Shown one piece after another: positions 7,489-49,763 of a stretch of 64,000 nucleotides of DNA; within the stretch, counting starts at the first letter, position 1, and every line of letters begins with the position of its first letter. The position numbers and the translations under genes are program-made. This DNA is from a virus. The notes under the pieces are model-generated. The model did not search any database, was not told the DNA's origin, and worked only from the letters and a program-made list of their open reading frames with translations. Location of the stretch: the UHGV virus genome UHGV-1362809. One strand, given 5' to 3'.

Positions 7489-9507
7489 ATGAAGAATATT
7501 GATACACTCAAACAGTGGGCAAGCGCATATTACAATGACCAGCCTATGGTGTCAGACGATGAGTACGATGCGTTGTATGATACGCTCAAGGCTAAATACC
7601 CTAATGATGCGTTTTTCAACACTGTTGGAGCGTCTACTCAATCAGAAGCAGTAGACCTTCCGTATCAAATGGGTTCTCTAAATAAGGTTAATCCCTATAC
7701 CATCACAGACTTTATAAAGCCTAAGGGTGTTTATCTTGTTACCCCCAAATTCGATGGATTGACGTGCCAGCTTATTTATAAGAATGGTAAATTGAAAGCT
7801 GCCTATACCAGAGGAAACGGGTATCAAGGACAACCAGTTTTGACACGGGCAAAGTACATCGGAGGTATTCCTAAAACTTTACCCACCTCCCTTAAAGGGG
7901 AAATTGAAGTGGAAGGAGAACTGATTATTTACAAGTCGGTGTTTAATAAGCTATACAAAGGAGAGTTTGCCCACCCTCGTAATTTTTGCGTTGGTACTTT
8001 GAGACCAAAGGTGAGTGAAAAAGAGTATCAAGCTTTGATTGATAAGGATTCCTCTGTAAAAGACCGTCTTAAATATATGCAGTTTATTGCTTTCAAGGCG
8101 AGAGGGCTTAAATCTACAAGTAAATATGATTCCTTGTTGACCCTTAAAGGTTGGGGTTTTAGCACTTCCGTTCAACCCTCCAAAAAATGGTCGGACGCCA
8201 ATTTCAAAACATACAAATCAGAGGGTAGGGACGCATTGTGCAAGTGCAAACGATTTGAACTGCCCTTTATGCCTTTGCCTCGTACTTCCGACTTGACAAC
8301 CGACTGGTTTAAAGCAGCTATTGACGGTGTTAAATCCTCCAAGTTTGACGTTGCCTGCGATGGGGTTGTTATAGAGTATGACGATCTCAATAAACAAAAG
8401 AAAATGGGTCTTGAGACAAATTCTCTTAACCCAAAGTTTGCTCGTGCAGTTAAACATATCCAAAAGGAGCAGACAGGTAAGTACACCACGGTGCAAGATA
8501 TTGAATGGAATATGTCTAAACGTGGTAATTTTGTTCCGACTTTGGTTCTCGACCCTATTGAGTTAGAAGGCTCCACCATTTCACGGGTTAGTGGAAACAA
8601 TATTGATATGCTTAAAAAACAGGGCATCGGTGTGGGCGCTAAAATTAAGATAGTCAGATCTGGCGACGTTATTCCTTATATCGTTGACGTGTCGAAAACT
8701 TCTGCTGTTGAGTACCCCAAGAAATGTCCTTACTGCGGTACTAAACTTACTATAGAGGGAGTGCATTTGCATTGTCCTAATGCCAAGTGCAACGGTCGTA
8801 AAGCACAGGAGGTTCAAGGCTTCTTTCAAATTGCTAAGTGCGATGGCGTATCGGGTGCAACAATCAATGACTTTATGTTAGCAGGGTACTCACTCAAAAA
8901 GATTTTGACACTTAAAACTTCTGATATTACTTGTTTGGAAGGATACAAGGCTAAAAGTGCAGCCAACATTGTAAAAGCTATTAAGACTATGCGTGGTTCA
9001 CTTTACCTGTGCAATTTGATGCACGCCTTGGGTTATTTTAACACAGCCCAGACGGGTTTAGGAGCTACTAAGCTTCAGTCTATCATTGACTTTTTGGGAG
9101 CGCAAAATATATATGAAGACAACGTCAAGCAATCGAAACTAAATAAGCTTGGTACGATTGCAGGTATCGCACAAAAGAGTGCCGATATATTTATCTCCAA
9201 CTATTCCAAGTTTCAATCTAAGTTTCAGTCGATTAAGAGTTTGTTCGACCTGTTAGACTTTAAAGAAGTGGAGTTGGCTTCTACGAAATTGGACGGTATG
9301 TCGTTTTGTTTTACTGGTGCAAGAGACCACAACTTGGAAAAGGTTATTGTTGACAATGGAGGTACGGTTAAAGGAAGTGTGACTAAGGATTTGACTGTGT
9401 TGTTTTCAGCGGGGGATTCGAGTAAAACTGCAACTGCCAAACAACGTGGCGTCAAGATTGTTCCTTTTGGTCAGGCTGTTTCCTACATAAACAAGTTAAT
9501 AGGGTAG
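7489..9507 (+). CDS. ligA: NAD-dependent DNA ligase (LigA family)
   Basis: 672 aa; adenylation motif KxDG (TPKFDGLTC); Cys4 zinc finger (CPYCGTKLT...HLHCPNAKC); C-terminal BRCT-like region; RBS caggaggaatcc-ATG. Confidence 0.9.
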   Translation: MKNIDTLKQWASAYYNDQPMVSDDEYDALYDTLKAKYPNDAFFNTVGASTQSEAVDLPYQMGSLNKVNPYTITDFIKPKGVYLVTPKFDGLTCQLIYKNGKLKAAYTRGNGYQGQPVLTRAKYIGGIPKTLPTSLKGEIEVEGELIIYKSVFNKLYKGEFAHPRNFCVGTLRPKVSEKEYQALIDKDSSVKDRLKYMQFIAFKARGLKSTSKYDSLLTLKGWGFSTSVQPSKKWSDANFKTYKSEGRDALCKCKRFELPFMPLPRTSDLTTDWFKAAIDGVKSSKFDVACDGVVIEYDDLNKQKKMGLETNSLNPKFARAVKHIQKEQTGKYTTVQDIEWNMSKRGNFVPTLVLDPIELEGSTISRVSGNNIDMLKKQGIGVGAKIKIVRSGDVIPYIVDVSKTSAVEYPKKCPYCGTKLTIEGVHLHCPNAKCNGRKAQEVQGFFQIAKCDGVSGATINDFMLAGYSLKKILTLKTSDITCLEGYKAKSAANIVKAIKTMRGSLYLCNLMHALGYFNTAQTGLGATKLQSIIDFLGAQNIYEDNVKQSKLNKLGTIAGIAQKSADIFISNYSKFQSKFQSIKSLFDLLDFKEVELASTKLDGMSFCFTGARDHNLEKVIVDNGGTVKGSVTKDLTVLFSAGDSSKTATAKQRGVKIVPFGQAVSYINKLIG

Positions 9508-14119: not shown

Positions 14120-14362
14120 ATGACTCCTTATAAAGGTTGGTTAATAGCCCGAATGAGTGAGCAAGCTACAGGAGGCTTCATTGTACGTGGAGCCTCCCGA
14201 GGTTTGTTTGAGGGTAAAGTAGTGTCCATAGATGCAGACACTAAGGATATTAAAGTGGGTGATACAGTAGTGGCTCCGACGAATGAATGCTTTGAATATA
14301 GCCATCATTCGGAAGGTTTGTTGTACTTTGTACCTCTTAAGCATATCGTAGGTGTTGAATAA
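14120..14362 (+). CDS. groES: co-chaperonin GroES-like (80 aa)
   Basis: Size and pattern of GroES (mobile-loop-like TGGFIVRGASRG, KVGDTVV, C-terminal HIVGVE). Sits immediately upstream of the GroEL-like gene with a TAATG overlap. Confidence 0.7.
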   Translation: MTPYKGWLIARMSEQATGGFIVRGASRGLFEGKVVSIDADTKDIKVGDTVVAPTNECFEYSHHSEGLLYFVPLKHIVGVE

Positions 14363-15987
14363 TGTCACAGGTTATTTTAAGTGGAGACCAGAACAGAACT
14401 GAACTGTTGGAAGGTCTTAAAATTATGGCTGAAACAGTAGGTAGTACTTTGGGTCCTAAGGGTCTCAATGTTATTTTGCAAACTGAATTTGGTGCGCCCC
14501 ATATTACTAAGGACGGTGTTTCAGTCGCTCGTGAAATTAAACTCGATGGTGTGCAGGGATTAGGTGCATCATTGGTTAAGGAAGCTGCTAATAAGGCTGC
14601 TGTTGTCGGTGACGGTACGACTACAAGTTCTGTTTTGGCGTATGAAATTGCACGTCAAGGTATGACAAGCGCAGCCTATACCAACAAGTTTGGTATCAAA
14701 CGTGGTATTGAAGCAGCGTTAAAGGACATTGTGTCTAAACTTGAAGATAACACCATTCAAGTTAAAGATTCCAGCGACGTGTATAATATTGCGTTGGTAT
14801 CGGCTAATCATGATGAATCCATTGCTGAGCTATTTAAAAAGGCGTTTGAGTTGTCAGGCAAGGATGGTGTTATTGTTGTTCAAAAAACAAACAACTCTGA
14901 AACGACTTGCGAACGTGTGGAAGGTATGCAGTTTGACCGTGGATTTTTGAGGTCGATATTTATCAACGACTTTGAAAAACAGGAATGTCGCTTTGAACAC
15001 CCAAATATTGTGTTCGTGGATGGTAAACTCGACAGTCTGATTGAGCTTAGTACATTTTTTAATTCTAATGGAAAGGCTTTGGTTGAAAAACCATTGGTTA
15101 TTGTGGCGGAAGACTTCGATGCCCCTATCGTCGGCACCTTTGTTGAAAACCGTGTGCAGAGTGGTACGAGAGTATTGCTGGTTAAGGCTCCTGGATTTGG
15201 TGACCGTCGTAAAGACCACTTGGCTGACTTGTGTGCCTTTACTGGTGCAACCCTTATTTCTGAAGAGCAAGGTTTGTCGTTGGGTAAATGCACGATGGAA
15301 CACATGGGTCACTGCGATGTGTGGGTTTCGGACTTTGATAAGTCAACTATTCTTGGTGGTAAGTTTGATGAGACCCAGTTAGAAGATGCTAAAAAAGCTA
15401 TTCGTGGTCTTATTGAACGTGCTATTACCGACGTTGACCGCAATCGTTACAAAGAACGTTTGGCTCGTTTATCTGATGGTGTTGTTTCCATTTCGATTGG
15501 CGGTAATACCGATGTTGAAATCAAAGAGTTGTGCGACCGTATTGATGATGCCTTGTGTGCTGTAAAAGCTGCCGTCAAGGGTGGTTATACTGTAGGCGGC
15601 GGTATTGCACTTCTTAAAGCCTCGACTGAATGTGCTAATCCGTTTGACGTTGGCTCATCAGAACATATCGGCTACAACATTCTGCTCAACTGTTGTAAGG
15701 CCCCGTTGAAAAAGATTTGTGCTAATGTTGGTAATGACGATTTTACTCCCGACTATGTTGTTAGTACAGTGCTGCATAGCATAAAGAATGGACAGTCTAA
15801 TTTTGGGTTTGACGCAAAAGAGGAACACTTTGTTCAAAATATGCTAGACCATGGTATTATTGATCCAACGGACGTTGTTATCAGTAGTATCACCTGTGCA
15901 GTTTCCGCTTCTACTTTGTTGTTGAGTTCAGGATGCTCTGTACTACGACCCGAAGAAAAGAAGTGCGACTGTAAGTGTGGCAAGTAA
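14362..15987 (+). CDS. groEL: chaperonin GroEL-like (541 aa)
   Basis: Conserved Hsp60 blocks: GPKG(L)NV, AVVGDGTTTSSVLA (ATP-binding GDGTTT motif), equatorial and apical domain patterns. Confidence 0.9.
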   Translation: MSQVILSGDQNRTELLEGLKIMAETVGSTLGPKGLNVILQTEFGAPHITKDGVSVAREIKLDGVQGLGASLVKEAANKAAVVGDGTTTSSVLAYEIARQGMTSAAYTNKFGIKRGIEAALKDIVSKLEDNTIQVKDSSDVYNIALVSANHDESIAELFKKAFELSGKDGVIVVQKTNNSETTCERVEGMQFDRGFLRSIFINDFEKQECRFEHPNIVFVDGKLDSLIELSTFFNSNGKALVEKPLVIVAEDFDAPIVGTFVENRVQSGTRVLLVKAPGFGDRRKDHLADLCAFTGATLISEEQGLSLGKCTMEHMGHCDVWVSDFDKSTILGGKFDETQLEDAKKAIRGLIERAITDVDRNRYKERLARLSDGVVSISIGGNTDVEIKELCDRIDDALCAVKAAVKGGYTVGGGIALLKASTECANPFDVGSSEHIGYNILLNCCKAPLKKICANVGNDDFTPDYVVSTVLHSIKNGQSNFGFDAKEEHFVQNMLDHGIIDPTDVVISSITCAVSASTLLLSSGCSVLRPEEKKCDCKCGK

Positions 15988-16101
15988 TTTGCATAAAATA
16001 CTCTCAATGTAAATATTGTAAATAATCGTGGGTGTATGGTATATGCCTACAACATTTACTCCTTTTATGTTGTGTGTGAGTCAAGGGGTTGAAAATACCC
16101 C

Positions 16102-16146
16102 TTGACTTATTAAATAAGAGGTGGTATAGTATATACATAATCGAGG
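16102..16146 (+). promoter_or_regulatory. early-type promoter, copy 6, heading the RNA-rich region
   Basis: ttgact 16102-16107, 17-nt spacer, tatagt, then atatacataatcgagg. Confidence 0.6.
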
Positions 16147-16812
16147 TTGAAACGAGGTGCGAAGACCGAGTTAAAACCAGTTGACAATGGTCAAGGATTA
16201 TGGTATTGTAAATACACAATGCAACGAGTTGTTAGACACTGTTAATATGAACCCACAAGATGTAGTCAACCTTTTCGTGGTTTGTGGGATAAGTAAGTAC
16301 TGGGTTTCTTGTGTGTGATTTACCTCGCACGTCTCATACCGTACCGTGGCTGAAACTAATAGACTATTTACCTATGTAGGTGGGTAATGAGATACTATAA
16401 AGCCCTCGTTATGTTGTGCAAAGGGAGGGTGGATATACGTACTATTGGTGGAGTCAATGACGACACGATAACAATTAAGGCCTTATCATGAAGAGTGGCG
16501 CACTTTGTAATTGATGCTTGAGACTGTGAAACCTGTTTTACAATGTGTATCGCTTACAACATACGCATCGAGTTCGTGCGAGAGGTGAACATCCTCGGTT
16601 CACCAGAACTCACCCCTTTACGATTTAAAAATCGGTTGGCGGTTTAATCCCTCGACTCCTTTTATCAAGCGGAGGATTGTTGAAGTATGTAAAATACGGT
16701 CTAAGTACTAAACCATATTTTTTCTGTACTATATTATACGTGGATAAATGGAGCGTACCGAGTTAGTGCGTTAGGTAGAAATACCATAACTCTTCCTTTT
16801 GGTGGTCTAAAC

Positions 16813-16889
16813 CCCCTTGTAGCTTAGGCGGTTAAAGCAGTGGTCTTATAAACCAAAGAGCAGAGGTTCAAGTCCTCTCAAGGGGACCA
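16813..16889 (+). tRNA. tRNA with UAU anticodon (Ile-like), CCA encoded
   Basis: Manual cloverleaf: acceptor ccccttg/caagggg, D-arm gctt-aggcggtta-aagc, anticodon loop cttataa, T-arm agagg-ttcaagt-cctct, discriminator A plus cca. Confidence 0.6.
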
Positions 16890-16900
16890 ACAAACTTTAT

Positions 16901-16945
16901 GGAAACGTTGGTGTACAAAGTATAGGTTCGATTCCTATGGTTTCC
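16901..16945 (+). ncRNA. tRNA-like minihelix (acceptor-like stem plus T-arm, no D or anticodon arms), followed by T9 run
   Basis: ggaaac...tatagg-ttcgatt-cctat...gtttcc, then gttattgttttttttt; may act as a terminator or processing signal. Confidence 0.4.
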
Positions 16946-17358
16946 GTTATTGTTTTTTTTTAGTCTTGTTAGATACAATGCGAGTTTGGGCTCCTTTCAG
17001 TTGACGGAATGAGTGCTAGTATAATGTGGTTGCGATGCTGGTAAGACAGCGGTCCAGACTCTGTTTTCATTGTATAACGTTGTTTAATTATACCGTCCTC
17101 ATTCCGTCAGACCTGTAATGTAAGTACCTCCACGTGGTACAGGTTGGGTGCCTATTTTTAGGTAGCTAAAACTTACACACTCTTCTTTAAGTTGGTTAGA
17201 ACACCTGCTGGTTTACTTTGTGTTTGTCAGCAGGTTGACTGGTTGAAAGAACTGCCTCCTCGTGGCACCAGTCGGGTAGTGTGTTTTACACACGAGCTAA
17301 AAGTTCAAGCTTCAGACTGACGAGTCTGAATGATGATTGGATGATGAGTATATTATAG

Positions 17359-17441
17359 TGTTGCACGCCAAAGTGGAGAGTTGGCTGTTTCTAGATAAAC
17401 AGGGAAGCAATTCCTAATAGGTTCGATTCCTATTGCAACAT
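17359..17441 (+). ncRNA. type-II tRNA-like element, copy 1 (no encoded CCA, non-canonical anticodon loop)
   Basis: Acceptor tgttgca/tgcaaca, D-arm ccaa-agtggagag-ttgg, anticodon stem ctgttt/aaacag with 6-nt loop ctagat, variable hairpin ggaa-gcaa-ttcc, T-arm atagg-ttcgatt-cctat. Confidence 0.4.
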
Positions 17442-17447
17442 TATATC

Positions 17448-17528
17448 GAGTGCATTCCGTAGAGGTGAGACGGCTGTTTCTGAATAAACAGGGAAGCAAT
17501 TCCTAATAGGTTAAACCCTATCACACTC
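17448..17528 (+). ncRNA. type-II tRNA-like element, copy 2 (degenerate acceptor)
   Basis: Repeat of the previous element (ggctgtttctgaataaacagggaagcaattcctaatagg...), with only 5 of 7 acceptor pairs and a ttaaacc T-loop. Confidence 0.3.
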
Positions 17529-17805
17529 ACACCTTAGCTTCGAGGTCACCAAAGAGCAGTCGCACGACTTTAAACAGGGTATTTGCTTGATTCACCTAAG
17601 GAATGTAAATCAAGCGGTGGGTGTTTGACTACCATAAATCAACACAGCGTTTGTTGGCTATATATGCACGCACGTAGATAGTGATAAGATTACCGATGGG
17701 CAAGTGGTGATTGCTTTGTATGATTCGTAAATTCATACAGGGGTACTGACATACAGCCCCTTAACCGATGACATAGCAATATGATTGTCGTGTATGTCAA
17801 TTATT

Positions 17806-17839
17806 GGAGCGTTGGTAGAATGGTTATTACAACGGATTG
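17806..17839 (+). tRNA. tRNA-Ser 5' exon (acceptor, D-arm, 5' anticodon stem)
   Basis: ggagcgt (acceptor 5'), U8, 3-bp D-stem gta/tac with gaatggttat loop, acgga anticodon stem 5' strand. The complementary strands lie ~700 nt downstream. Confidence 0.6.
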
Positions 17840-18529
17840 AAAAGACTATGGGAAAATCTAAATTTATCTGTACTTATTGCGGTAAGGATTGTAAAAATTT
17901 AGGTGGACTTAATTGTCACGTCCCCTACTGTAAATTATAAAAATAGGGTGCCGAGACCCAGAAGCCCTTTAGCCCGCAGTAGAAAAGGTTGTATTCCTTG
18001 GAATAAGGGTTTAACAATGGCTACTTCTAAAATTGTTAAACGAGGGAGAGATAAACGGGTTAAACTTTATAGGGAAGGAATAATTGTTGGCTCTTTTACA
18101 GGTAGGCATCATACCGCCAAAACTAAAAGAAAAATGTCGAAAATTTGTAAACAAAGGCATTTAGATGGTTGGGATAATAAGGCAGGACGGTGTAAAAAGT
18201 ACAAGTATAAAAGTAAGTATGCTGGCTTAGTTACTTTAGACGGTACTTGGGAATTAGCTGTCGCACAATATTTAGACAAAAATGATATTCCTTGGAAGAG
18301 ACCTAATAAACGTTTTCCCTATAGATTTAGAGGAAAAAGTCGTACTTATAAACCCGACTTCTATTTAACTAAAAGGAGAACCTATATTGAAGTTAAAGGT
18401 TATCAAACATTAATGGATAGAGCTAAATGGAGAGATTTTCCTTATAGACTTCAAGTATGGAAAGCAGATAAACTTATTAAATTAGGCATTTTATAGTTGA
18501 ATGTTTAAATTGAAGTAGAGGATAGATTA
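17840..18529 (+). mobile_element. intervening sequence in tRNA-Ser: candidate group-I intron carrying an endonuclease ORF
   Basis: Separates complementary tRNA halves (7/7 acceptor pairs, 5/5 anticodon-stem pairs); contains the 197-aa nuclease ORF. Confidence 0.5.
17903..18496 (+). CDS. putative PD-(D/E)xK-type endonuclease within the tRNA intervening sequence (homing-endonuclease candidate)
   Basis: 197 aa with GTG start. C-terminal block RTYKPDFYL...RTYIEVKGY resembles a restriction-endonuclease-like fold (D...EVK). A 30-aa CxxC...CxxxxC ORF at 17848-17938 overlaps the 5' end in another frame, suggesting a frameshifted zinc-finger N-terminus. Confidence 0.5.
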   Translation: MDLIVTSPTVNYKNRVPRPRSPLARSRKGCIPWNKGLTMATSKIVKRGRDKRVKLYREGIIVGSFTGRHHTAKTKRKMSKICKQRHLDGWDNKAGRCKKYKYKSKYAGLVTLDGTWELAVAQYLDKNDIPWKRPNKRFPYRFRGKSRTYKPDFYLTKRRTYIEVKGYQTLMDRAKWRDFPYRLQVWKADKLIKLGIL

Positions 18530-18581
18530 CTAATCCGTCGTCCGAAAGGATGTGTGGGTTCGAGTCCTACACGCTCCGCCA
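18530..18581 (+). tRNA. tRNA-Ser 3' exon (3' anticodon stem, long variable arm, T-arm, acceptor 3', G73, CCA)
   Basis: tccgt; variable arm cgtccgaaaggatg; T-arm gtggg-ttcgagt-cctac; acgctcc pairs 7/7 with ggagcgt at 17806; discriminator G and CCA; matches tRNA-Ser architecture. Confidence 0.6.
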
Positions 18582-18914
18582 TATTACCTTTGGATTCATT
18601 TAAGGTCTGGTTATAGTTGGGTTGGTCCCCAACTTGGTACTAGATAAAGGCTGACATAAATCAGTATTGATATGTCCGTTGGTTGAAAGATTCCCGTTGT
18701 GATGACTGGAGTCGCCTTGATTGAGTCAATATATTGTGATTCTGTGTTTAAGGAATACAGCGTGGAAGCGTATGCCGCTATGCAACGACCTGTGGACAAC
18801 GAAAAGTGCCTTAAAGAGGATTAGTAAGTGCTGATGGTTTGGTAATTTGCACTTGGGAGTACTTTGTACGAGCAAACAACTGCCTATAAAAATTACCTGC
18901 AATTTTGACTATTT

Positions 18915-18991
18915 GGTGTCGTAGCTCAACGGGATAGAGCATAAGACTTCTAATCTTAAGGTTGGGCGTTCGAGTCGCCCCGACATCACCA
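18915..18991 (+). tRNA. tRNA-Arg (UCU), CCA encoded
   Basis: Acceptor ggtgtcg/cgacatc, D-arm gctc-aacgggata-gagc, anticodon stem taaga/tctta with loop cttctaa (UCU), T-arm gggcg-ttcgagt-cgccc, discriminator A plus cca. Confidence 0.8.
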
Positions 18992-19319
18992 AAAATTGGG
19001 TTGGCTACGTTAGCTCCCAAGTCATCAAAACGTGGCTATGTACTTGGTCAACGGGCATCAAGTAGGCTATGGTATGACGTGCCTTTACATACTCCTAATG
19101 CAATAATGGTGACTGTTGCGGGTCCGTCGTTAGGACCGTCTTCACAGGTAGCGCTGTAAACGACTATGGTAGAGAACTGCCCGTGATTTGACATCCAATA
19201 ATAGTACGTTAAGCTGTTAGTGCATTGTGTAATGCAGTGCAATAGTACAGGAGGGATGTTTTTTCTTTTCTTCCTCAGTTAGCTCTTTATAGTTTTCGGT
19301 TCCTGTGAAAAACTAATAT

Positions 19320-19402
19320 GCCCTTATGGTGAAATTGGTAGACACGCAAGATTAAGGTTCTTGTGCGAAAGCATCTCCGTTCGAGTCGGAGTAGGGGCAC
19401 CA
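19320..19402 (+). tRNA. type-II tRNA-Leu (anticodon loop ttaaggt read as AAG; possibly UAA), CCA encoded
   Basis: Acceptor gccctta/taggggc, 3-bp D-stem gtg/cac with 11-nt D-loop, anticodon stem caaga/tcttg, long variable arm gtgcgaaagcat, T-arm ctccg-ttcgagt-cggag, A73, cca. Confidence 0.6.
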
Positions 19403-19516
19403 TATTTATGGGGGCTCTGGTGAGTCTGAAACTTTAATTGTTGAACTCGAGCAACAAACTGTGACGACAAGATAACGGTTTTAATATTTGACCCAGATAA
19501 AGACCGACCCCACCGA

Positions 19517-43634: not shown

Positions 43635-44127
43635 GCTTACACTCGCTCCAAAATATAGGTGGAGGGTAGACGATACGCATACTGTTGCGGACTATAATAA
43701 TGATAAATTGTTTTCCACAAAGGGTGGCAGTGTAGTAGCAGTAGACGCCGACGGTGATATTATTTCACTATGTAAAAATGATGGAGACCTTTATTTTGGG
43801 TCTGATATACTAAAAGTTGCTGTTAAGAATGGAGGTAAAAAGTTAGACGCCTATGGTGATAGTTTGTACGAGTTTTATACAAAAAATGGATTTAGACCTA
43901 TTTCTTGGACACCTTTTAATAAAGAGTACGCTCCTCACGATTGGGGAGAAGATTTTGGGGACAATCATCATATAATTTTTTATGTATATGACCCTAATTA
44001 TATTTGCACTAAAACATACGAGGAATTTTTGCAAAGTGTTCCATGTTGTAAATATAATGATGGTTATGAAAAGGCACGAAAAATAAGGGATGAATATCTC
44101 TTAACTATGGAGAATAATAATGGCTAA
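43600..44127 (+). CDS. C-terminal part of the GNAT-like paralogue (175 aa), +1 frame relative to 43440
   Basis: Homologous to residues ~58-192 of the 27973 gene (KNGGKKLDAYGDSLYEFYTKNGF); no ATG (TTG at 43600); overlaps the upstream fragment by 35 nt. Looks like a frameshifted single gene. Confidence 0.45.
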   Translation: MLICINLLKVCKLTLAPKYRWRVDDTHTVADYNNDKLFSTKGGSVVAVDADGDIISLCKNDGDLYFGSDILKVAVKNGGKKLDAYGDSLYEFYTKNGFRPISWTPFNKEYAPHDWGEDFGDNHHIIFYVYDPNYICTKTYEEFLQSVPCCKYNDGYEKARKIRDEYLLTMENNNG

Positions 44128-47100
44128 GGATTATAATGCCAATTCAATCAAAGTACTGGACTACCCCGTCTGTTGCCACGTTCGCCCAGGAATGTATATC
44201 GGCGATACAACGGCTCCCAAGGGTGGATACTGCGATGGTGTGTTGCAGTGTGTAAAAGAAGCTCTTGATAATGCGGTTGACGAGGCTTCAAACAAGTATT
44301 CTAATGTTGTCGGTTTTGTGGCACAAAAGGACGGTTCCTTTGTAATTTATGATACGGGACGTGGTATTCCTGTTGAAGTACACCCCAAGTTTAAAAAAGA
44401 AAAGAAGTCAACTTTGGAGGTTATTTTTACCGTGTTACACGCAGGCGGTAAAATGGACTCTTCCAATTATGATAAATCGGTCGGTCGTAACGGTTTGGGT
44501 ATTTCTGTCACAAATGCTTTAAGCTCTTGGTTTCGAGTTACAACGTGCAGGAATCGTAAATGGTATACCCAGTTGTACCAAGAGGGGTATGTTAAGTCTA
44601 AAGTGCGGACTACCGTAAATCCTTCTAAAAGATTGGGTATAAAAGTTTCTAAAGGCACAGTAATTGAATTTTTACCCTTGTCCAAGGTGTTTAAAGATAG
44701 TATCAAGTGCGATTTGTCTGCTGTTTTTAAATGGATGAAGTTTAGTCAATACCTACTTCCTGGGATTACATTCAAGTACGAAAATCGTCTAAAAGGTAAA
44801 AGTAAGGAATTTTGTTCCACCAAGGGCATCGAGGGATACCTTAATAAACTGTGTAAGGATATCGGTTCTGAGGATATTACTGACACTTTTACGCTAAGAT
44901 ATCCTACTATTGACTTGTCTCTTAAATGGGTAAAAAATGACGACTGTATCATAGAATCCTATGTAAATGGAAGCCCTACTCCTAACGGAGGTACACACGT
45001 CAATGGGTTGAAAAAAGCTCTTACTGCTTGCATTTCTAACTATTCCAAACGGTCAGACTCCTTTAAGCCCGACGATTTGTTAGAGGGACTGGTGTGCGTT
45101 TTAAACTACAAAATGGACGAACCCTTGTTCGATAGTCAGACCAAGACAAAGTTGGTAAACAAAGGTACGGTGGATGATTTACCTGCTGAGATTGAAAAAG
45201 ATTTGACTAAGTGGGGCAGAGCTAATAAACAGGCATTATTGGAGATTATTCAACGTGCTAACGATATTAGGGGTGCAAAATTACAGTTTGAACAGGCTCG
45301 TAAGGCTATTGCAGCTGTTAAGGGTAAACGAGGTAAATCGTCGCTTCCCCCTTCTTCCAAATTTTCAGTTTCCACGACCAAAAATGCAAAGGATAGAGAA
45401 CTTTACATCGTGGAAGGTTTGAGTGCGGCAGGTACGGCTAAAGCAGCTAAGGATCACCATTATCAGGAGTCGTTGGCTCTTCGTGGTAAATTTCTTAATG
45501 CTGAAAAAACAACTGCAAGTCGTTTGTTTGAAAGTGATGAAGTGCTTAATATACTTAAAGCGATTGGGTATAATTCTGACGATAAATCTATAACCTATCG
45601 TGTCGGTAAAGTAATTATGTTGAGCGATGAGGATGATGATGGTTGCTTGGATGGTAACACCCGTATTTTGACTTTGGACGGTAAAAATCCAAAAATTAAA
45701 ACTTTGGTGAAGCAGTATGAAAAGGATAAGAACCCTATTGAAGTATATTCAGTAGATAAAGATGGTAATTTGGTAGTAGGAAAAGCTATTGAACCTCGTG
45801 TAACTAGAACTGTCAACAAAATGATTAAACTAACTTTTGACAACGGTTCTACGGTTTTGTGTACGCTTAACCATAAGTGGCTTATAAATAATCCTTCTAG
45901 GAAAGATGATAGAGTTATTTGGAAAGATGGTTTGGGGTATATACAAGCTAAGGACTTAAAGGAAACAGATAGTATTCGTAGCGTGTATCTTGAAAATAGA
46001 CATTCAGATGGGTCTTTTGTTTCTAATAGATATAAGTGTATTATAAATGCTTCCTCACAGGGAAAATACTGTGATAGAGATACTATGCCTGTGCATCAAT
46101 GGGTTAAATGTTGTGAGCAAAAAGGTTGGAAAAAATATAGAAAGGCTGGTAGGGGTATAGCTATACATCATATAGACGAAAACCCACAAAATAATTGCTC
46201 GAGTAATTTAAAGTATTTAACCCAAGCGGAGCATGGTAAGTTGCATATAAAGGAGCAGTGTGAAAAATATAATGGGTCTCAAAAACAGAAAGATGATTTA
46301 GCTAAAAACTGGGCTAACGGTGTTTATGATAAGATAAAGGATACTATTATTATATATAATAGATCAAAAAAACACAGAAAGCTGGTAAGTAAAATGAATG
46401 GAGATAAGAACCAATGCTTCAGACAGGCTATGGGAAAATTAAAGAACTATTATTTAACATTGAAGCATAACCACATAAAGGTAAATAGAGATAATTGGAA
46501 TCTCTATGTGGGTAAAAAGGGAATAGGTGGTGTTATGACTTGGGAGCTCTTTCATTCTAAAGGTATAAAGTTAAAAGATATTAAAACTTTTACTAATATG
46601 AGAGAAAGTGTCCGGTTGTACAAGTTATCTACTGTGAAAAACTGTTATCCTACTCAAAAACTTACAAAGTTTGAGTCTTTTTGTGACTATTTAAAGTCCA
46701 AGGGGTTGTCCGTTAATAAAGCTACATATAATAAGATAAGGATAAAGCTTATTCGTAAAAAGAAACTTTCTCAAGGGACGCCTAAATGGGAAACAATAAA
46801 GAACCATAAAATTGTTAAAAAGGAAGTTATTAATTCCGAACAGGAAGTTTATTGTATGACTGTTCCTGATTATGGTAACTTTATGGTGGCGGATAAGTAT
46901 GGTAACGGAATTGGTAGTAGCAATAGTCATATTGATACTTTGGTTTGTACATTGCTACAAAAGTTATGTCCTGATTTAATTGAAAAGGGTATGCTGTACA
47001 AGGTAAAGGCACCTTTATTCGTTGGGAGAACTGACTCTACCCAATATTATGGTGCTAGTATGAATGACCTAAAACGGCAGTATAAAGGAAAGTTTAAGTC

Positions 47101-47281
47101 TATTACCCGTATCAAAGGTTGGGGAGAAGCCAGTGCATCTTTGTTAAGAGAAGTTGCCTTCGACCCTGCTACCCGTAAACTAATTCAAATAAAACAGAGC
47201 GACAAAAAGGGTATACAACAGGCTAAGAAACTTTTGGGTGACGACATCGAAGCTCGTAGACAGTTGTTAAGTGAGGAATAA
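44120..47281 (+). CDS. type II DNA topoisomerase large subunit (GyrB-like ATPase plus Toprim; T4 gp39/gp60-like) interrupted by an intein
   Basis: GyrB blocks RPGMYIGDT, LDNAVDEA, LHAGGKMD, GRNGLGISV, ELYIVEGLSAAGTAK. DEDDDG | CLDGNTRIL... ...GIGSSN | SHIDTLVCTLL: the extein junction recreates the canonical DxDxDGSHI Toprim motif. The intein (45644-46924, 427 aa) contains an HNH motif (HHID...N...H). Confidence 0.85.
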   Translation: MAKDYNANSIKVLDYPVCCHVRPGMYIGDTTAPKGGYCDGVLQCVKEALDNAVDEASNKYSNVVGFVAQKDGSFVIYDTGRGIPVEVHPKFKKEKKSTLEVIFTVLHAGGKMDSSNYDKSVGRNGLGISVTNALSSWFRVTTCRNRKWYTQLYQEGYVKSKVRTTVNPSKRLGIKVSKGTVIEFLPLSKVFKDSIKCDLSAVFKWMKFSQYLLPGITFKYENRLKGKSKEFCSTKGIEGYLNKLCKDIGSEDITDTFTLRYPTIDLSLKWVKNDDCIIESYVNGSPTPNGGTHVNGLKKALTACISNYSKRSDSFKPDDLLEGLVCVLNYKMDEPLFDSQTKTKLVNKGTVDDLPAEIEKDLTKWGRANKQALLEIIQRANDIRGAKLQFEQARKAIAAVKGKRGKSSLPPSSKFSVSTTKNAKDRELYIVEGLSAAGTAKAAKDHHYQESLALRGKFLNAEKTTASRLFESDEVLNILKAIGYNSDDKSITYRVGKVIMLSDEDDDGCLDGNTRILTLDGKNPKIKTLVKQYEKDKNPIEVYSVDKDGNLVVGKAIEPRVTRTVNKMIKLTFDNGSTVLCTLNHKWLINNPSRKDDRVIWKDGLGYIQAKDLKETDSIRSVYLENRHSDGSFVSNRYKCIINASSQGKYCDRDTMPVHQWVKCCEQKGWKKYRKAGRGIAIHHIDENPQNNCSSNLKYLTQAEHGKLHIKEQCEKYNGSQKQKDDLAKNWANGVYDKIKDTIIIYNRSKKHRKLVSKMNGDKNQCFRQAMGKLKNYYLTLKHNHIKVNRDNWNLYVGKKGIGGVMTWELFHSKGIKLKDIKTFTNMRESVRLYKLSTVKNCYPTQKLTKFESFCDYLKSKGLSVNKATYNKIRIKLIRKKKLSQGTPKWETIKNHKIVKKEVINSEQEVYCMTVPDYGNFMVADKYGNGIGSSNSHIDTLVCTLLQKLCPDLIEKGMLYKVKAPLFVGRTDSTQYYGASMNDLKRQYKGKFKSITRIKGWGEASASLLREVAFDPATRKLIQIKQSDKKGIQQAKKLLGDDIEARRQLLSEE
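45644..46924 (+). mobile_element. intein 1 (Cys1 ... Asn, followed by Ser) with HNH homing-endonuclease domain, inside the topoisomerase ATPase/Toprim subunit
   Basis: In-frame 1281-nt insert beginning CLDGNTRILTLDG and ending GNGIGSSN before SHI; interrupts the conserved DxDxDGSHI motif. Confidence 0.75.
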
Positions 47282-47282
47282 A

Positions 47283-49763
47283 ATGAAAAAAGCACAGAAT
47301 GTTATCACAGATTATAATTCCTTTGTTAGAAGCAGTTATAAAAGGTATGCAATTAGTGTATTGAGCGACCGTGCGTTACCAGATTTTCGTGACGGTTTGA
47401 AGCCCGTTCAGAGAAAAATGTTGTGGACTGCCTATAAACTTGGTCTACATAATAACAAGGCTTTTACAAAATGTACGAATATTACTGGTAATTTGATGGC
47501 TCGTTTTTCCCCGCACTGTTTAGACGGTAATACTCAAATACCGTTATTAAACGGGGAAAAAATTAAATTAAAGGATATGGATTATAATAAAGTTTATGAT
47601 GTTCTTTCAGTTGACGAAAGCGGTAAAATAGTTGCTGCTAAGCTTTCAAAGGCTCGTAAAGGTAAAATTGTTGATAAAGAATATCATATCGTATTGTCCA
47701 ATGGTACAGTACTACCTTATTGTTCCAACAATCACCAGTTTTATATGGGTAATTCCACTTGGAAGAGGGCAGACGAAATACAGGTTGGAGATGAAGTGTA
47801 TGGAGGGACTTGGCTCTTTGAACAGGATTATTGTCCTATCGTAAGTTATTCTTCAAATAGTAAAAATACGAGAAGAACTGGAGTACATAGAATAGTTGAC
47901 TTCACTTACAGAGGTATTCTAAATAAAACTAATGAGAATACTGGGGATAAGTTACAAGTTCATCATAAGGACTTAAATACCCGTAATAATTTAATATCTA
48001 ACTTGAAAAGACTATCTTATAATGACCACATGAGATTACACAGTAGTTCTGGAGGTAATACTGTTAATGAAGTATTAAGGTCTTCAAAACGAGTAGTAAA
48101 AGCTAATAAGGAAAAAAATTCCTTTTTACTCTCAAGTTATAATAAATACAGATGGTTATATGTAGCCATTAAAGCAGTTAAAATTTTAAAGGAGAATAAA
48201 CTTCCCCTTACATGGAAAAACTATGATAGTTTAAGAACTAAGATACGAGGTTTGACCCTAAAGACCACGTTGCTTGAAAGGGGTTGGGATTTAAAAAGAC
48301 TATACAAAGAAAGAAATTGGACTTTTGATAAAACACCAATTCTTGGAAAAGTAACAAGAGCCTTATTAGGAAATAATAAACGACATCCCTATGAAGGAAA
48401 AGGCTACGGTTGGAGTAAAGGTTTAAGTCATAATTGGAATAACAGTAACATTAAACCAAAACTCTATGTAAAAGAAATAATAGTTAAAAAAGTAAAAAGA
48501 AAACAACTCTATGACTTTACTGTTAAAAAGCATCAAAATGTTTTGATTATTTTGGGAGATAACAAGACGTTTATTTGTGCCCATAATAGTGATGCCTATG
48601 GGGTGCTGGTTAATTTGACTGGTAATAGCGTAAAATTCAATCTTTTTGAAGGAAACGGGAACTTTGGTAACTACATTGACGAAGCTGCCGCACCCCGTTA
48701 TACGGAAGCCAAATTAAGTAAGTATAGCGACGACTTTTTGTTGAATCAGAACTATTTGGAAGTGTGTAAAATGCTTCCAAACTATTTGGACACCGAGGAA
48801 GAACCTATGTTGTTACCCTCCTTGTTGCCTGTGTTGTTTTTGATTGGATGTCAAGGTATTGCGGTAGGTTATAAAACTGAAATTCCAACCTTTACTCTTA
48901 AGTCTCTTATAAAAGTTGTCAAAAAAGGGTTGGTCAAAAAACTAAAAAGTAAGGATTTACTGTGTTTAGAGTTTGATGACATCTATAACGCTCAGTATGT
49001 TGGGACTGACCAGCAGTTGTTGGATTATTATACTTCTGGTAAGGCAGCCCTACCTTTTAATGTATTCTATAAATTGGATAGCACTAAATCATTTACTATC
49101 AATTCTATCATAGGAAATGGGGAAACTATGATTAACAAGATAGAATCTGACGATAGGGTTTATCAAGTAAATGATTTGACAAGTGGCAACGACATCAAAA
49201 TACAAGTTGTGTTGAAGCCTTCTATAGCCAGTAAGGACGTGAAAAATGTAGCTGCTGATATTGTGGCTAAGTTAAAAATAAATAGAATATTTATTACAAA
49301 CGTTATCAAAAGAGTTGTTACTGAACAAAAGGACGGAGACCATACGTTTTATGACGAGGGTGCGGTCTTAAAAGAGTCTAACCCAGTTGACTTGCTCAAC
49401 GAATGGATTAAATGGCGTGTTGAACTTGAAGTAAAGATGCTTAACAACCAAGTATCTAAGACAAATGACAAGGTAAACCAGTTGGAGTTTTATCGTTATT
49501 TAATTTCTAAATTAGATATTATCTTTAAAGTACTCAAATCGAAAACAAATGATTTGAAGGGAGCGATGAAGAAGGCTCTTAAGTGTACCGATGACCAAGC
49601 TCAAACGGTGTTAGATATGCCTGTTAGACGGCTGAGTAAATTGAGCGACGACGAGTTAAAGGGACAAATTAAGGACTTACAGCAGTATTCAAAGGACTGT
49701 AAAAAATGGTTGAAAAAACCACAAGATAAAATTTTGCAAGATTTGAACAAGGTAAAGGTGTGA
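47283..49763 (+). CDS. type II DNA topoisomerase DNA-cleavage subunit (GyrA-like; T4 gp52-like) interrupted by an intein
   Basis: RYAISVLSDRALPDFRDGLKPVQRKML (GyrA signature); ...MARFSPH | CLDGNTQIPL... ...FICAHN | SDAYGVLVNL...GNGNFG: extein junction recreates the HPHG(D)SAVY...GNFG block. ATG 47283 (gaggaataaa) preferred over 47271. Confidence 0.85.
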   Translation: MKKAQNVITDYNSFVRSSYKRYAISVLSDRALPDFRDGLKPVQRKMLWTAYKLGLHNNKAFTKCTNITGNLMARFSPHCLDGNTQIPLLNGEKIKLKDMDYNKVYDVLSVDESGKIVAAKLSKARKGKIVDKEYHIVLSNGTVLPYCSNNHQFYMGNSTWKRADEIQVGDEVYGGTWLFEQDYCPIVSYSSNSKNTRRTGVHRIVDFTYRGILNKTNENTGDKLQVHHKDLNTRNNLISNLKRLSYNDHMRLHSSSGGNTVNEVLRSSKRVVKANKEKNSFLLSSYNKYRWLYVAIKAVKILKENKLPLTWKNYDSLRTKIRGLTLKTTLLERGWDLKRLYKERNWTFDKTPILGKVTRALLGNNKRHPYEGKGYGWSKGLSHNWNNSNIKPKLYVKEIIVKKVKRKQLYDFTVKKHQNVLIILGDNKTFICAHNSDAYGVLVNLTGNSVKFNLFEGNGNFGNYIDEAAAPRYTEAKLSKYSDDFLLNQNYLEVCKMLPNYLDTEEEPMLLPSLLPVLFLIGCQGIAVGYKTEIPTFTLKSLIKVVKKGLVKKLKSKDLLCLEFDDIYNAQYVGTDQQLLDYYTSGKAALPFNVFYKLDSTKSFTINSIIGNGETMINKIESDDRVYQVNDLTSGNDIKIQVVLKPSIASKDVKNVAADIVAKLKINRIFITNVIKRVVTEQKDGDHTFYDEGAVLKESNPVDLLNEWIKWRVELEVKMLNNQVSKTNDKVNQLEFYRYLISKLDIIFKVLKSKTNDLKGAMKKALKCTDDQAQTVLDMPVRRLSKLSDDELKGQIKDLQQYSKDCKKWLKKPQDKILQDLNKVKV
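47517..48587 (+). mobile_element. intein 2 (Cys1 ... His-Asn, followed by Ser) with HNH-like motif, inside the GyrA-like subunit
   Basis: In-frame 1071-nt insert beginning CLDGNTQIPLLNG (same N-terminal block as intein 1) and ending ICAHN; contains HHKDLNTRNN...HMRLH. Confidence 0.7.

Follow-up and report, generated by a model that had tools for sequence, protein, structure and literature searches.

A serine transfer RNA (tRNA-Ser) gene interrupted in its anticodon loop by an endonuclease gene was analysed in a 64,000-nucleotide (nt) stretch of the virus genome UHGV-1362809, the whole of which is referred to here as the window. The 5' half of the tRNA gene (17806-17838; all features of the locus lie on the plus strand) reads as tRNA positions 1-33: GGAGCGT forms the acceptor 5' strand and is followed by U8, a D stem of 3 bp, ACGGA as the anticodon-stem strand and a terminal U32-U33. 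The 3' part (18529-18581) runs from A34-C35-U36-A37-A38 through UCCGU, a 15-nt variable arm, the T arm GTGGG/CCTAC and the acceptor strand ACGCTCC to G73 and CCA. Searches with half-gene profiles recovered the two parts at E=0.015 (5' half) and E=6e-10 (3' half). ARAGORN with its intron option reported a single tRNA at 17806-18581 with an interruption of 690 nt; the gene was missed by ARAGORN without this option and by Rfam.

An uninterrupted version of the gene was found on a 207-kb contig (L114), which was reached through the GroEL homologue cluster P0121 (94% identical to the GroEL of the window). This contig is collinear with the window, at 98.4-98.6% identity on either side of the tRNA-Ser locus, and the neighbouring tRNA-Ile(UAU), an odd tRNA-like element, tRNA-Arg(UCU) and tRNA-Leu(AAG) are common to both. 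When joined, 17806-17838 and 18529-18581 give 86 nt that are 100% identical to the intact tRNA-Ser(ACU) of L114 (8947-9032), the 5' half corresponding to 8947-8979 and the 3' part to 8980-9032, an agreement far beyond chance. The L114 tRNA folds as a cloverleaf and scores 76.8 bits against the tRNA-Ser covariance model. By blastn, window positions 15901-17838 match L114 7040-8979 and 18525-19700 match L114 8976-10152, the two segments sharing 4 nt of L114 (8976-8979). A further contig, L001 (run SRR24884195), is 98.9% identical to the window and carries the insertion at identical junctions. Since the insertion is shared with L001 and absent from L114, the interruption is real and polymorphic, and the uninterrupted tRNA of the near-identical L114 defines an insertion polymorphism with a precise empty site.

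An earlier note on this DNA, made from the sequence alone, had proposed the two tRNA-Ser halves, and the sequence reading, the ARAGORN intron option and the L114 empty site all confirmed them. Comparison with L114 refined several of its details: the 5' fragment, which the note had extended to 17839, ends at 17838, as 17839 is already the first base (G) of the insert; the candidate loop TTACTAA (anticodon ACU) was retained and TTGCTAA discarded; and the insertion, put at about 690 bp, measures exactly 686 nt (17839-18524). The anticodon ACU (A34) is unusual in place of GCU, and is also found in tRNA-Ser of L004-L007, L028, L082 and L084-L086 as well as L114, often beside members of the homing endonuclease gene (HEG) family described below. 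A34 might conceivably offer protection from the endonuclease or from host anticodon nucleases.

No other tRNA-Ser, intact or fragmentary, was detected elsewhere in the 64-kb window by ARAGORN or by the half-profile searches. An exact-match search of IMG/VR with either tRNA half gave no match, and a search of GenBank phage DNA with the tRNA cluster returned short tRNA matches only. On the locus, Rfam at E<=10 gave a weak antisense match to a plastid 3' untranslated region family that covers, in antisense, the 3' half and anticodon loop of a tRNA, presumably the neighbouring plastid trnS. The match shows that the 3' half resembles an AGY-codon (GCU-type) tRNA-Ser.

The insert and its endonuclease gene

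The insert lies between U33 and A34 and is flanked by a 4-nt direct repeat, GATT, the left copy of which (17835-17838) was recognized from the overlap of the two blastn segments and the right copy (18525-18528; AATT in L001) from comparison with L001 and L114. It opens with a 9-nt leader, GAAAAGACT (17839-17847), which is not present in the empty site of L114. The leader has no promoter of its own, and a promoter and terminator scan gave nothing above expectation. The endonuclease gene follows, starting at ATG 17848 and originally encoding about 216 amino acids (aa), and the insert closes with a 28-nt trailer (18497-18524).

The 197-aa open reading frame (ORF) that the earlier note had described as a PD-(D/E)xK-like endonuclease does belong to that class of nuclease by profile, PHROG and fold comparisons, but it is the larger, frameshifted remainder of the gene rather than the whole of it. 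A 2-nt (GA) deletion near 17936 severs the first 30 codons at a TAA created by the deletion. The first piece (17848-17940), recognized from the ORF list, Pfam and L001, therefore contains these 30 codons with a C2HC zinc finger and the premature TAA, and the second (17903-18496, in the +1 frame) contains a WNKGLT/NUMOD3-like DNA-binding region and the PD-(D/E)xK domain. In L001 the two extra bases are present and a single continuous ORF of 214 aa (P0001) results; there, a 6-nt deletion has changed EVKGYQ to EVNQ, and the invariant Lys of the E-x-K motif is lost. Judged from these sequences, the element is in decay, as the window copy is frameshifted and the L001 copy lacks its catalytic Lys. 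These are different lesions, both probably inactivating, and their occurrence in both known copies is as expected for a HEG after it has spread.

The domain order of the protein is zinc finger, WNKGLT/NUMOD3-like segment and PD-(D/E)xK nuclease. Pfam returned zinc-finger matches together with sub-threshold matches to NUMOD3, TnsA-N, Phage_endo_I and DUF7487. A family profile matched T7 endonuclease I across the E..PDF..ExK active site (E=0.0026), PHROG 15137, annotated as 'endonuclease', was also matched, and the top matches of the fold of P0002, a relative from locus L082, were all nucleases of the PD-(D/E)xK superfamily. In the numbering of the repaired protein the motif residues are E136, P170-D171-F172 and E182-V-K184, of which E136, D171, E182 and K184 are invariant in 39 family sequences. 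The catalytic motif is kept in the window copy, the frameshift lying upstream of it. No paralogue of the HEG was found elsewhere in the 64-kb window.

Relatives of the endonuclease in phage tRNA clusters

In public data 338 homologues of the endonuclease were found, and the family survey collected 85 loci, 64 of them non-redundant. Nearly all of the collected loci are in phage tRNA clusters, with the HEG on the tRNA strand. In 37 of the 64 non-redundant loci the start of a tRNA-Ser(GCU/ACU) falls within -45 to +60 nt of the HEG stop codon, and in a further six a tRNA-Ser lies just upstream of the HEG, giving tight linkage in 43/64. The closest distinct relative, P0002 of L082, has the same ...LGIL* end, and an intact tRNA-Ser(ACU) follows 2 nt on. 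When 39 of these tRNAs are compared, the anticodon loop (U-R-C-U-A-A) is the only block that does not vary. A scan of JGI metagenomes with the protein yielded distant relatives only (<=34% identity) and no additional split allele.

Orphan tRNA-Ser 5' halves, which are invisible to ARAGORN, were sought with a profile of tRNA-Ser 5' halves. Among the 64 loci, 19 lay within 200 nt ahead of the HEG start codon as against six elsewhere, and this zone makes up 3.9% of the sequence (binomial P=2.6e-22 for the enrichment). These orphans are complete to U33, G34 or C35, after which the HEG leader begins. Their identity to the 5' half of the intact tRNA-Ser after the HEG is only about 55-65%, which indicates that the orphan belongs to a different tRNA. 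In four loci (L002, L009, L049 and L064) an orphan 3' fragment was also found past the intact tRNA. The acceptor strand of this fragment forms 7/7 pairs with the orphan 5' half and only 2-5/7 with the intact tRNA, which places the cassette inside a resident gene. Two loci, L002 and L012, were also analysed in detail with the covariance model. The general layout is thus a resident 5' half cut at positions 33-35, then a leader, the HEG and a complete imported tRNA-Ser, sometimes followed by the remains of the resident 3' half.

The tRNA-Ser(GCU) after the HEG of L012 (3065-3142) is without a D arm, 17 model positions being reduced to 4 nt, yet it scores 60.3 bits. A resident 3' fragment follows, the acceptor strand of which (CGGCTCC) pairs with that of the orphan 5' half (GGAGTCG). 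Intron calls made by ARAGORN in L012 and L025 were rejected as spurious because their starts lie inside the ORF, and L012 was reread with the covariance model.

At many loci (L052, L054-L056, L059-L062 and L065; offset -37) the HEG ORF runs through the 5' half of the intact downstream tRNA, and its stop codon is the UAA of the anticodon loop (U36-A37-A38). The same loop-UAA stop is seen in L118, where the HEG (1504-2163) overlaps a tRNA-Arg (2126-2200). Processing of such an overlapping tRNA by RNase P would remove the HEG stop codon from the mRNA and could act as a brake on expression. The T4 late-promoter consensus, TATAAATA, or a close variant of it was observed in most cassette leaders (L012, L022, L029, L049, L051, L057, L064, L067, L118, L119, L124 and L125). 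In several leaders the ribosome-binding site is covered by a hairpin, a feature also known from T4 endonuclease genes. The 9-nt leader of the window has neither a TATAAATA-type motif nor such a hairpin.

Isolates also harbour family members, of a more distant kind (30-36% identity). In Acinetobacter phage AM101, orf148 (YP_009889779, annotated 'endonuclease') splits a tRNA(CAU) (L119, 1426-2168); the insert of 666 nt, with a 2-nt repeat, is flanked by the first 37 and the last 42 nt of a 77-nt tRNA that is intact in AB-Navy1 (OL770258, 76933-77009). Across Lazarusvirus the insert was found in nine records (AM101 and eight others) and the empty site with the intact 77-nt tRNA in more than 25. 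In AC4 (L122, 427-1169) the insert is in a different tRNA allele, having the T stem AGTGG/CCACT rather than ACAGG/CCTGT, which indicates homing into different resident alleles. The same intron-less split of a CAU tRNA was seen in Aeromonas phage AsFcp_1 (L124, 612-1377) and Citrobacter phage CkP1 (L125, 625-1370). The HEG stop codon is the anticodon-loop U36-A37-A38 in the AM101, AsFcp_1 and CkP1 lineages; the AM101 and AsFcp_1 leaders carry TATAAATA, the CkP1 leader carries the close variant GAATAAATA, and AsFcp_1 and CkP1 have a hairpin over the HEG ribosome-binding site. The split tRNAs are all missing from the annotation of these records. A 'restoring' arrangement was found with tRNA-Arg(UCU) in E. 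coli phage IME341, and in phages PhaxI and Kuja the HEG ORF overlaps the start of an intact tRNA-Met(CAU); only in PhaxI was an orphan 5' fragment seen ahead of the HEG.

Origin of the interruption and fate of the tRNA

The interruption is best explained, with a probability that we put at about 0.82, by the insertion of an intron-less HEG cassette directly in the anticodon loop of a phage tRNA-Ser(ACU), between U33 and A34. Four features found here mark a free-standing HEG: a nuclease with DNA-binding modules, no ribozyme around it, a presence/absence polymorphism and a recurrent target. We infer from the junctions that the nuclease cuts in the tRNA anticodon loop. During co-infection, the enzyme would cut HEG-less tRNA genes in this loop and the broken end bearing the resident 5' half would prime copying of the donor cassette; with such priming the left junction would be fixed and the right one variable. 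The usual cassette would bring a leader, the HEG and an isoacceptor-matched tRNA of its own. The resident gene would then remain as dead halves, with the imported tRNA replacing or compensating for it, and a genome bearing the HEG would be immune to further cutting as its recognition site is split. In the window, the right-hand exchange would have occurred at the loop itself, so that the imported 5' half was left as a relic and the resident 3' half followed directly after it. The locus retains no uninterrupted tRNA-Ser. The split tRNA-Ser of the window is most likely non-functional, that is, a dead gene.

The 28-nt trailer is probably the decayed relic of the imported tRNA-Ser 5' half, to judge from its location and alignment. 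Relatives have the 5' half of an intact tRNA-Ser at this position, as at L082, where that tRNA begins just past the homologous ...LGIL stop. With the trailer taken as the 5' half, the covariance model aligned 18498-18579 along its whole length (31.6 bits), pairing 5/7 acceptor and 4/5 anticodon-stem positions, with the D stem deleted. The trailer of L001, TGGGCGTT, matches the resident GAGCGTT at 6/7 positions, with the correct spacing to the loop. The window trailer and that of L001 (3650-3681) differ at seven positions (six substitutions and a 3-nt indel) in about 30 nt, compared with about 1% elsewhere. This hypervariability could stem from recombination confined to this patch, from gene conversion by the upstream 5' half, or from selection that favours escape from self-cleavage.

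Several points weigh against the insertion of a tRNA-disabling cassette as set out above. The cut site is read from junction positions only. The similarity of the trailer to 31 tRNA-Ser 5' halves was not significant in 1000 shuffles (P=0.21 for the window and 0.97 for L001), which leaves its identity as a relic probable rather than proven. Both tRNA halves are perfect; at the local divergence about 1.2 differences would be expected in 86 nt, so their intactness neither supports nor excludes selection. The intron-less split recurs in several cultured lineages, and split tRNAs are perhaps tolerated or rescued. Finally, the genome exceeds 200 kb, of which the window covers 64 kb, and a second tRNA-Ser or RNA-repair genes could lie outside the window.

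Some of these points would suit a split tRNA that is rejoined by protein enzymes: the halves would fold, nucleases would cut at the junctions and an RNA ligase (phage Pnkp/Rnl-type or host RtcB) would join U33 to A34, in a phage analogue of archaeal and eukaryal tRNA splicing or of T4 anticodon-loop repair that would cover the window, AM101, AsFcp_1 and CkP1. Both halves are intact in two genomes and perfectly complementary in several cultured T4-like phages, a recurrence that raises the odds slightly; AM101 encodes a 57B-type '2',3'-cyclic phosphodiesterase/RNA ligase' near its split locus; and 33/34, where the tRNA is interrupted, is also the site at which T4 Pnkp/Rnl1 heals the break made by PrrC. 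Such rejoining is nevertheless considered unlikely. Neither a bulge-helix-bulge motif nor any other helix joining the junctions was found in the fold of a shortened precursor, and the insertion site is 33/34, not 37/38 as in the protein-spliced tRNA introns of archaea and eukaryotes. No splicing endonuclease or RNA ligase was recognized by Pfam among the 20 largest ORFs of the window, and the intactness of the halves is statistically uninformative as noted. Furthermore, the family usually supplies a complete replacement tRNA, which argues that the split gene is unusable. It is very unlikely that the trailer and the 3' half (18497-18581) make up a functional hybrid tRNA-Ser, the upstream 5' half alone being dead as at the 'restoring' loci of the family. 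Although the end-to-end alignment and its paired stems, as well as a site matching that of the intact tRNA of relatives, would fit a hybrid, its score is under half of the 76.8 bits of the intact allele, the D stem is missing, the G1-C72 pair is lost and two acceptor positions are mismatched. ARAGORN did not call it, no cloverleaf appeared in the minimum-free-energy fold of either the window or L001, and the seven differing positions fall between two 99%-identical genomes.

The earlier note had preferred a self-splicing group I intron with an embedded HEG, as in cyanobacterial tRNA-fMet (I-Ssp6803I) or tRNA-Leu(UAA). The anticodon-loop site, the PD-(D/E)xK HEG inside the insert and the plus/minus polymorphism all recall mobile tRNA group I introns, and genuine examples exist in comparable phage tRNA clusters. 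This origin is rejected here as extremely unlikely. The covariance check against Intron_gpI (RF00028) and the wider Rfam search gave no group I, group II or small ribozyme on 17300-19500 at E<=10 and none window-wide at the gathering threshold, nor did RF00028 match L001 or L002 at that threshold, whereas the same Rfam library, as a positive control, found three introns of about 200 nt in tRNA-Leu(UAA) and tRNA-Met genes of L053 and L057. The insert is filled by its ORF, with just 9 nt upstream and 28 nt downstream non-coding, too little for a ribozyme core, and no stretch of the locus varies more than the 3' non-coding one. Of the five boundary placements that the GATT repeat allows relative to L114, not one combines U(-1) with a terminal G (the note had itself remarked that, by eye, the junction breaks the simple U/G rule), and the sole candidate intron-terminal G (18525) is A in L001. 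In relatives, moreover, the HEG stands outside any intron, beside intact tRNAs. The fallback offered in the same note, a tRNA disrupted by a mobile ORF, is right, as the empty site of L114 and an insert devoid of ribozyme show. An assembly chimera or sequencing artefact, for which the probably metagenomic source of the window and its frameshifted HEG might be cited, has a practically negligible probability, given that the independent L001 has the same junctions with different lesions and that finished genomes of cultured phages show the same architecture.

The control introns (RF00028, 52.7-60.7 bits) lie at L053 1958-2161 and at L057 3807-4016 and 5189-5385, in tRNA-Leu(UAA)/tRNA-Met(CAU) genes. 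These true tRNA group I introns are on the same contigs as members of the HEG family that lie beside tRNA-Ser. A 116-nt tRNA match in L002 (2191-2306; Rfam tRNA, 50.9 bits) has an insertion of about 49 nt in the anticodon-arm region, too short for a group I intron.

Free-standing HEGs are known between phage genes and occasionally split protein genes. A full-text literature search, in which coverage of the literature was incomplete, gave no description of an intron-less HEG splitting a tRNA or of a cassette of HEG and replacement tRNA. The family may represent an undescribed homing strategy, in which the anticodon loop is cut, the gene is installed without an intron, and a replacement tRNA is imported or the tRNA is left in two. 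Its targets may be the tRNAs with U36-A37-A38, i.e. Ser GCU/ACU, Met/Ile CAU and Arg UCU. The window copy is a decaying member of this widespread and apparently undescribed variant of free-standing HEGs targeting tRNA anticodon loops.

Phage tRNA genes matter for evading host anticodon nucleases. If the proposed strategy is correct, a force that shuffles and replaces these genes would have been identified, with replacement-tRNA cassettes acting as a selfish driver of their turnover, and the unannotated 'missing' tRNAs and orphan halves in many phages, including cultured T4-like ones, would be explained. The family would also be a source of compact nucleases with tRNA-gene specificity, and the isolate pair AM101 and AB-Navy1 would let one ask whether an anticodon-cut tRNA can be rescued. 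Were split tRNAs rejoined after all, they would provide the first case in a bacterial virus of tRNA splicing that depends on proteins. For annotation, a tRNA interruption filled by an ORF should not be labelled a group I intron.

Surroundings of the locus and comparison with known systems

A GroEL-type chaperonin gene (14362-15987) lies 1.8 kb upstream of the locus, and a NAD-dependent DNA ligase with a BRCT domain is encoded at 7489-9507. The 207-kb length of the related L114 indicates a large (jumbo-class) phage, and no close relative of it was found among GenBank phages. Inteins were observed in the genes for a GyrB-like (44120-47281) and a GyrA/ParC-like (47271-49763) topoisomerase subunit, with Intein_splicing matches at residues 520-923 (including an HNH motif) and 91-426, respectively; together with the HEG, these indicate that the phage carries several independent selfish elements.

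Other tRNA-like elements were also noted near the locus. Two tandem elements of type II, with a long variable arm, lie at 17359-17442 and 17448-17530 and have 6-nt anticodon loops (CUAGAU and CUGAAU). The former scores 30 bits on the tRNA-Ser model, is reported by ARAGORN as tRNA-??? (ag) and is kept in L001, L114 and L116; the latter is a degraded copy (12.9 bits). The pair could be scars of earlier tRNA-gene damage. Right after tRNA-Ile(UAU) there is a 47-nt mini tRNA-like element (16901-16947; 18.4 bits) that consists of the acceptor stem GGAAAC/GTTTCC and a T arm, lacks the D and anticodon arms, and shares its T arm with the 17359-17442 element.

With respect to known systems, I-Ssp6803I is a PD-(D/E)xK enzyme encoded in the anticodon loop of Synechocystis tRNA-fMet, inside a self-splicing group I intron. 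The present locus resembles it, and the tRNA-Leu(UAA) introns, in having a PD-(D/E)xK HEG in an anticodon loop with plus and minus alleles, but differs in that there is no ribozyme to restore the tRNA at the RNA level. Identity to I-Bth0305I and to Vsr-like, TnsA-like and T7 endonuclease I domains is only 17-24%; unlike those nucleases, the family combines an N-terminal C2HC zinc finger, a WNKGLT/NUMOD3-like module and an association with tRNA genes that is specific to it. The split tRNA genes of Nanoarchaeum equitans are likewise separated at the anticodon loop, but their halves have complementary leaders, a bulge-helix-bulge motif, a splicing endonuclease and a ligase, and nothing comparable was found here. 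Integrative elements of tRNA genes resemble the common layout of the family, as in both cases mobile DNA brings in tRNA sequence that keeps a working tRNA and a truncated duplicate is left behind. Such elements depend on integrases, insert at the 3' end and duplicate no more than the overlap, whereas the present process would be nuclease-driven, directed at the anticodon loop and accompanied by a diverged, complete tRNA.

Among phage genes, T4 SegB is a free-standing GIY-YIG endonuclease of the tRNA cluster, encoded between tRNA genes, that recognises a T-psi-C stem-loop motif (PMC2330249). The family described here is similar in being a free-standing HEG of phage tRNA clusters, SegB too recognising a conserved tRNA-gene element. 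SegB drives preferential inheritance of the tRNA region in co-infection, and a comparable drive may be supposed for the present family. Unlike SegB, however, the family has the PD-(D/E)xK fold and its junctions are in the anticodon loop, inside a tRNA gene or abutting a replacement tRNA. Free-standing HEGs that split protein genes include mobE in nrdA of Aeromonas phage Aeh1, mobA in gene 60/39 of T4 and seg43 in gene 43 of phage 25 (PMC2988022). As in those cases, a HEG without intron or intein lies within a host gene, two pieces are left and a related phage has the gene uninterrupted. Their hosts are protein genes, and the two polypeptides reassemble into an active enzyme; a tRNA cut in the anticodon loop, in contrast, would not be expected to give a decoding tRNA by non-covalent reassembly. 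The present family also differs from them in that it usually imports a whole replacement tRNA.

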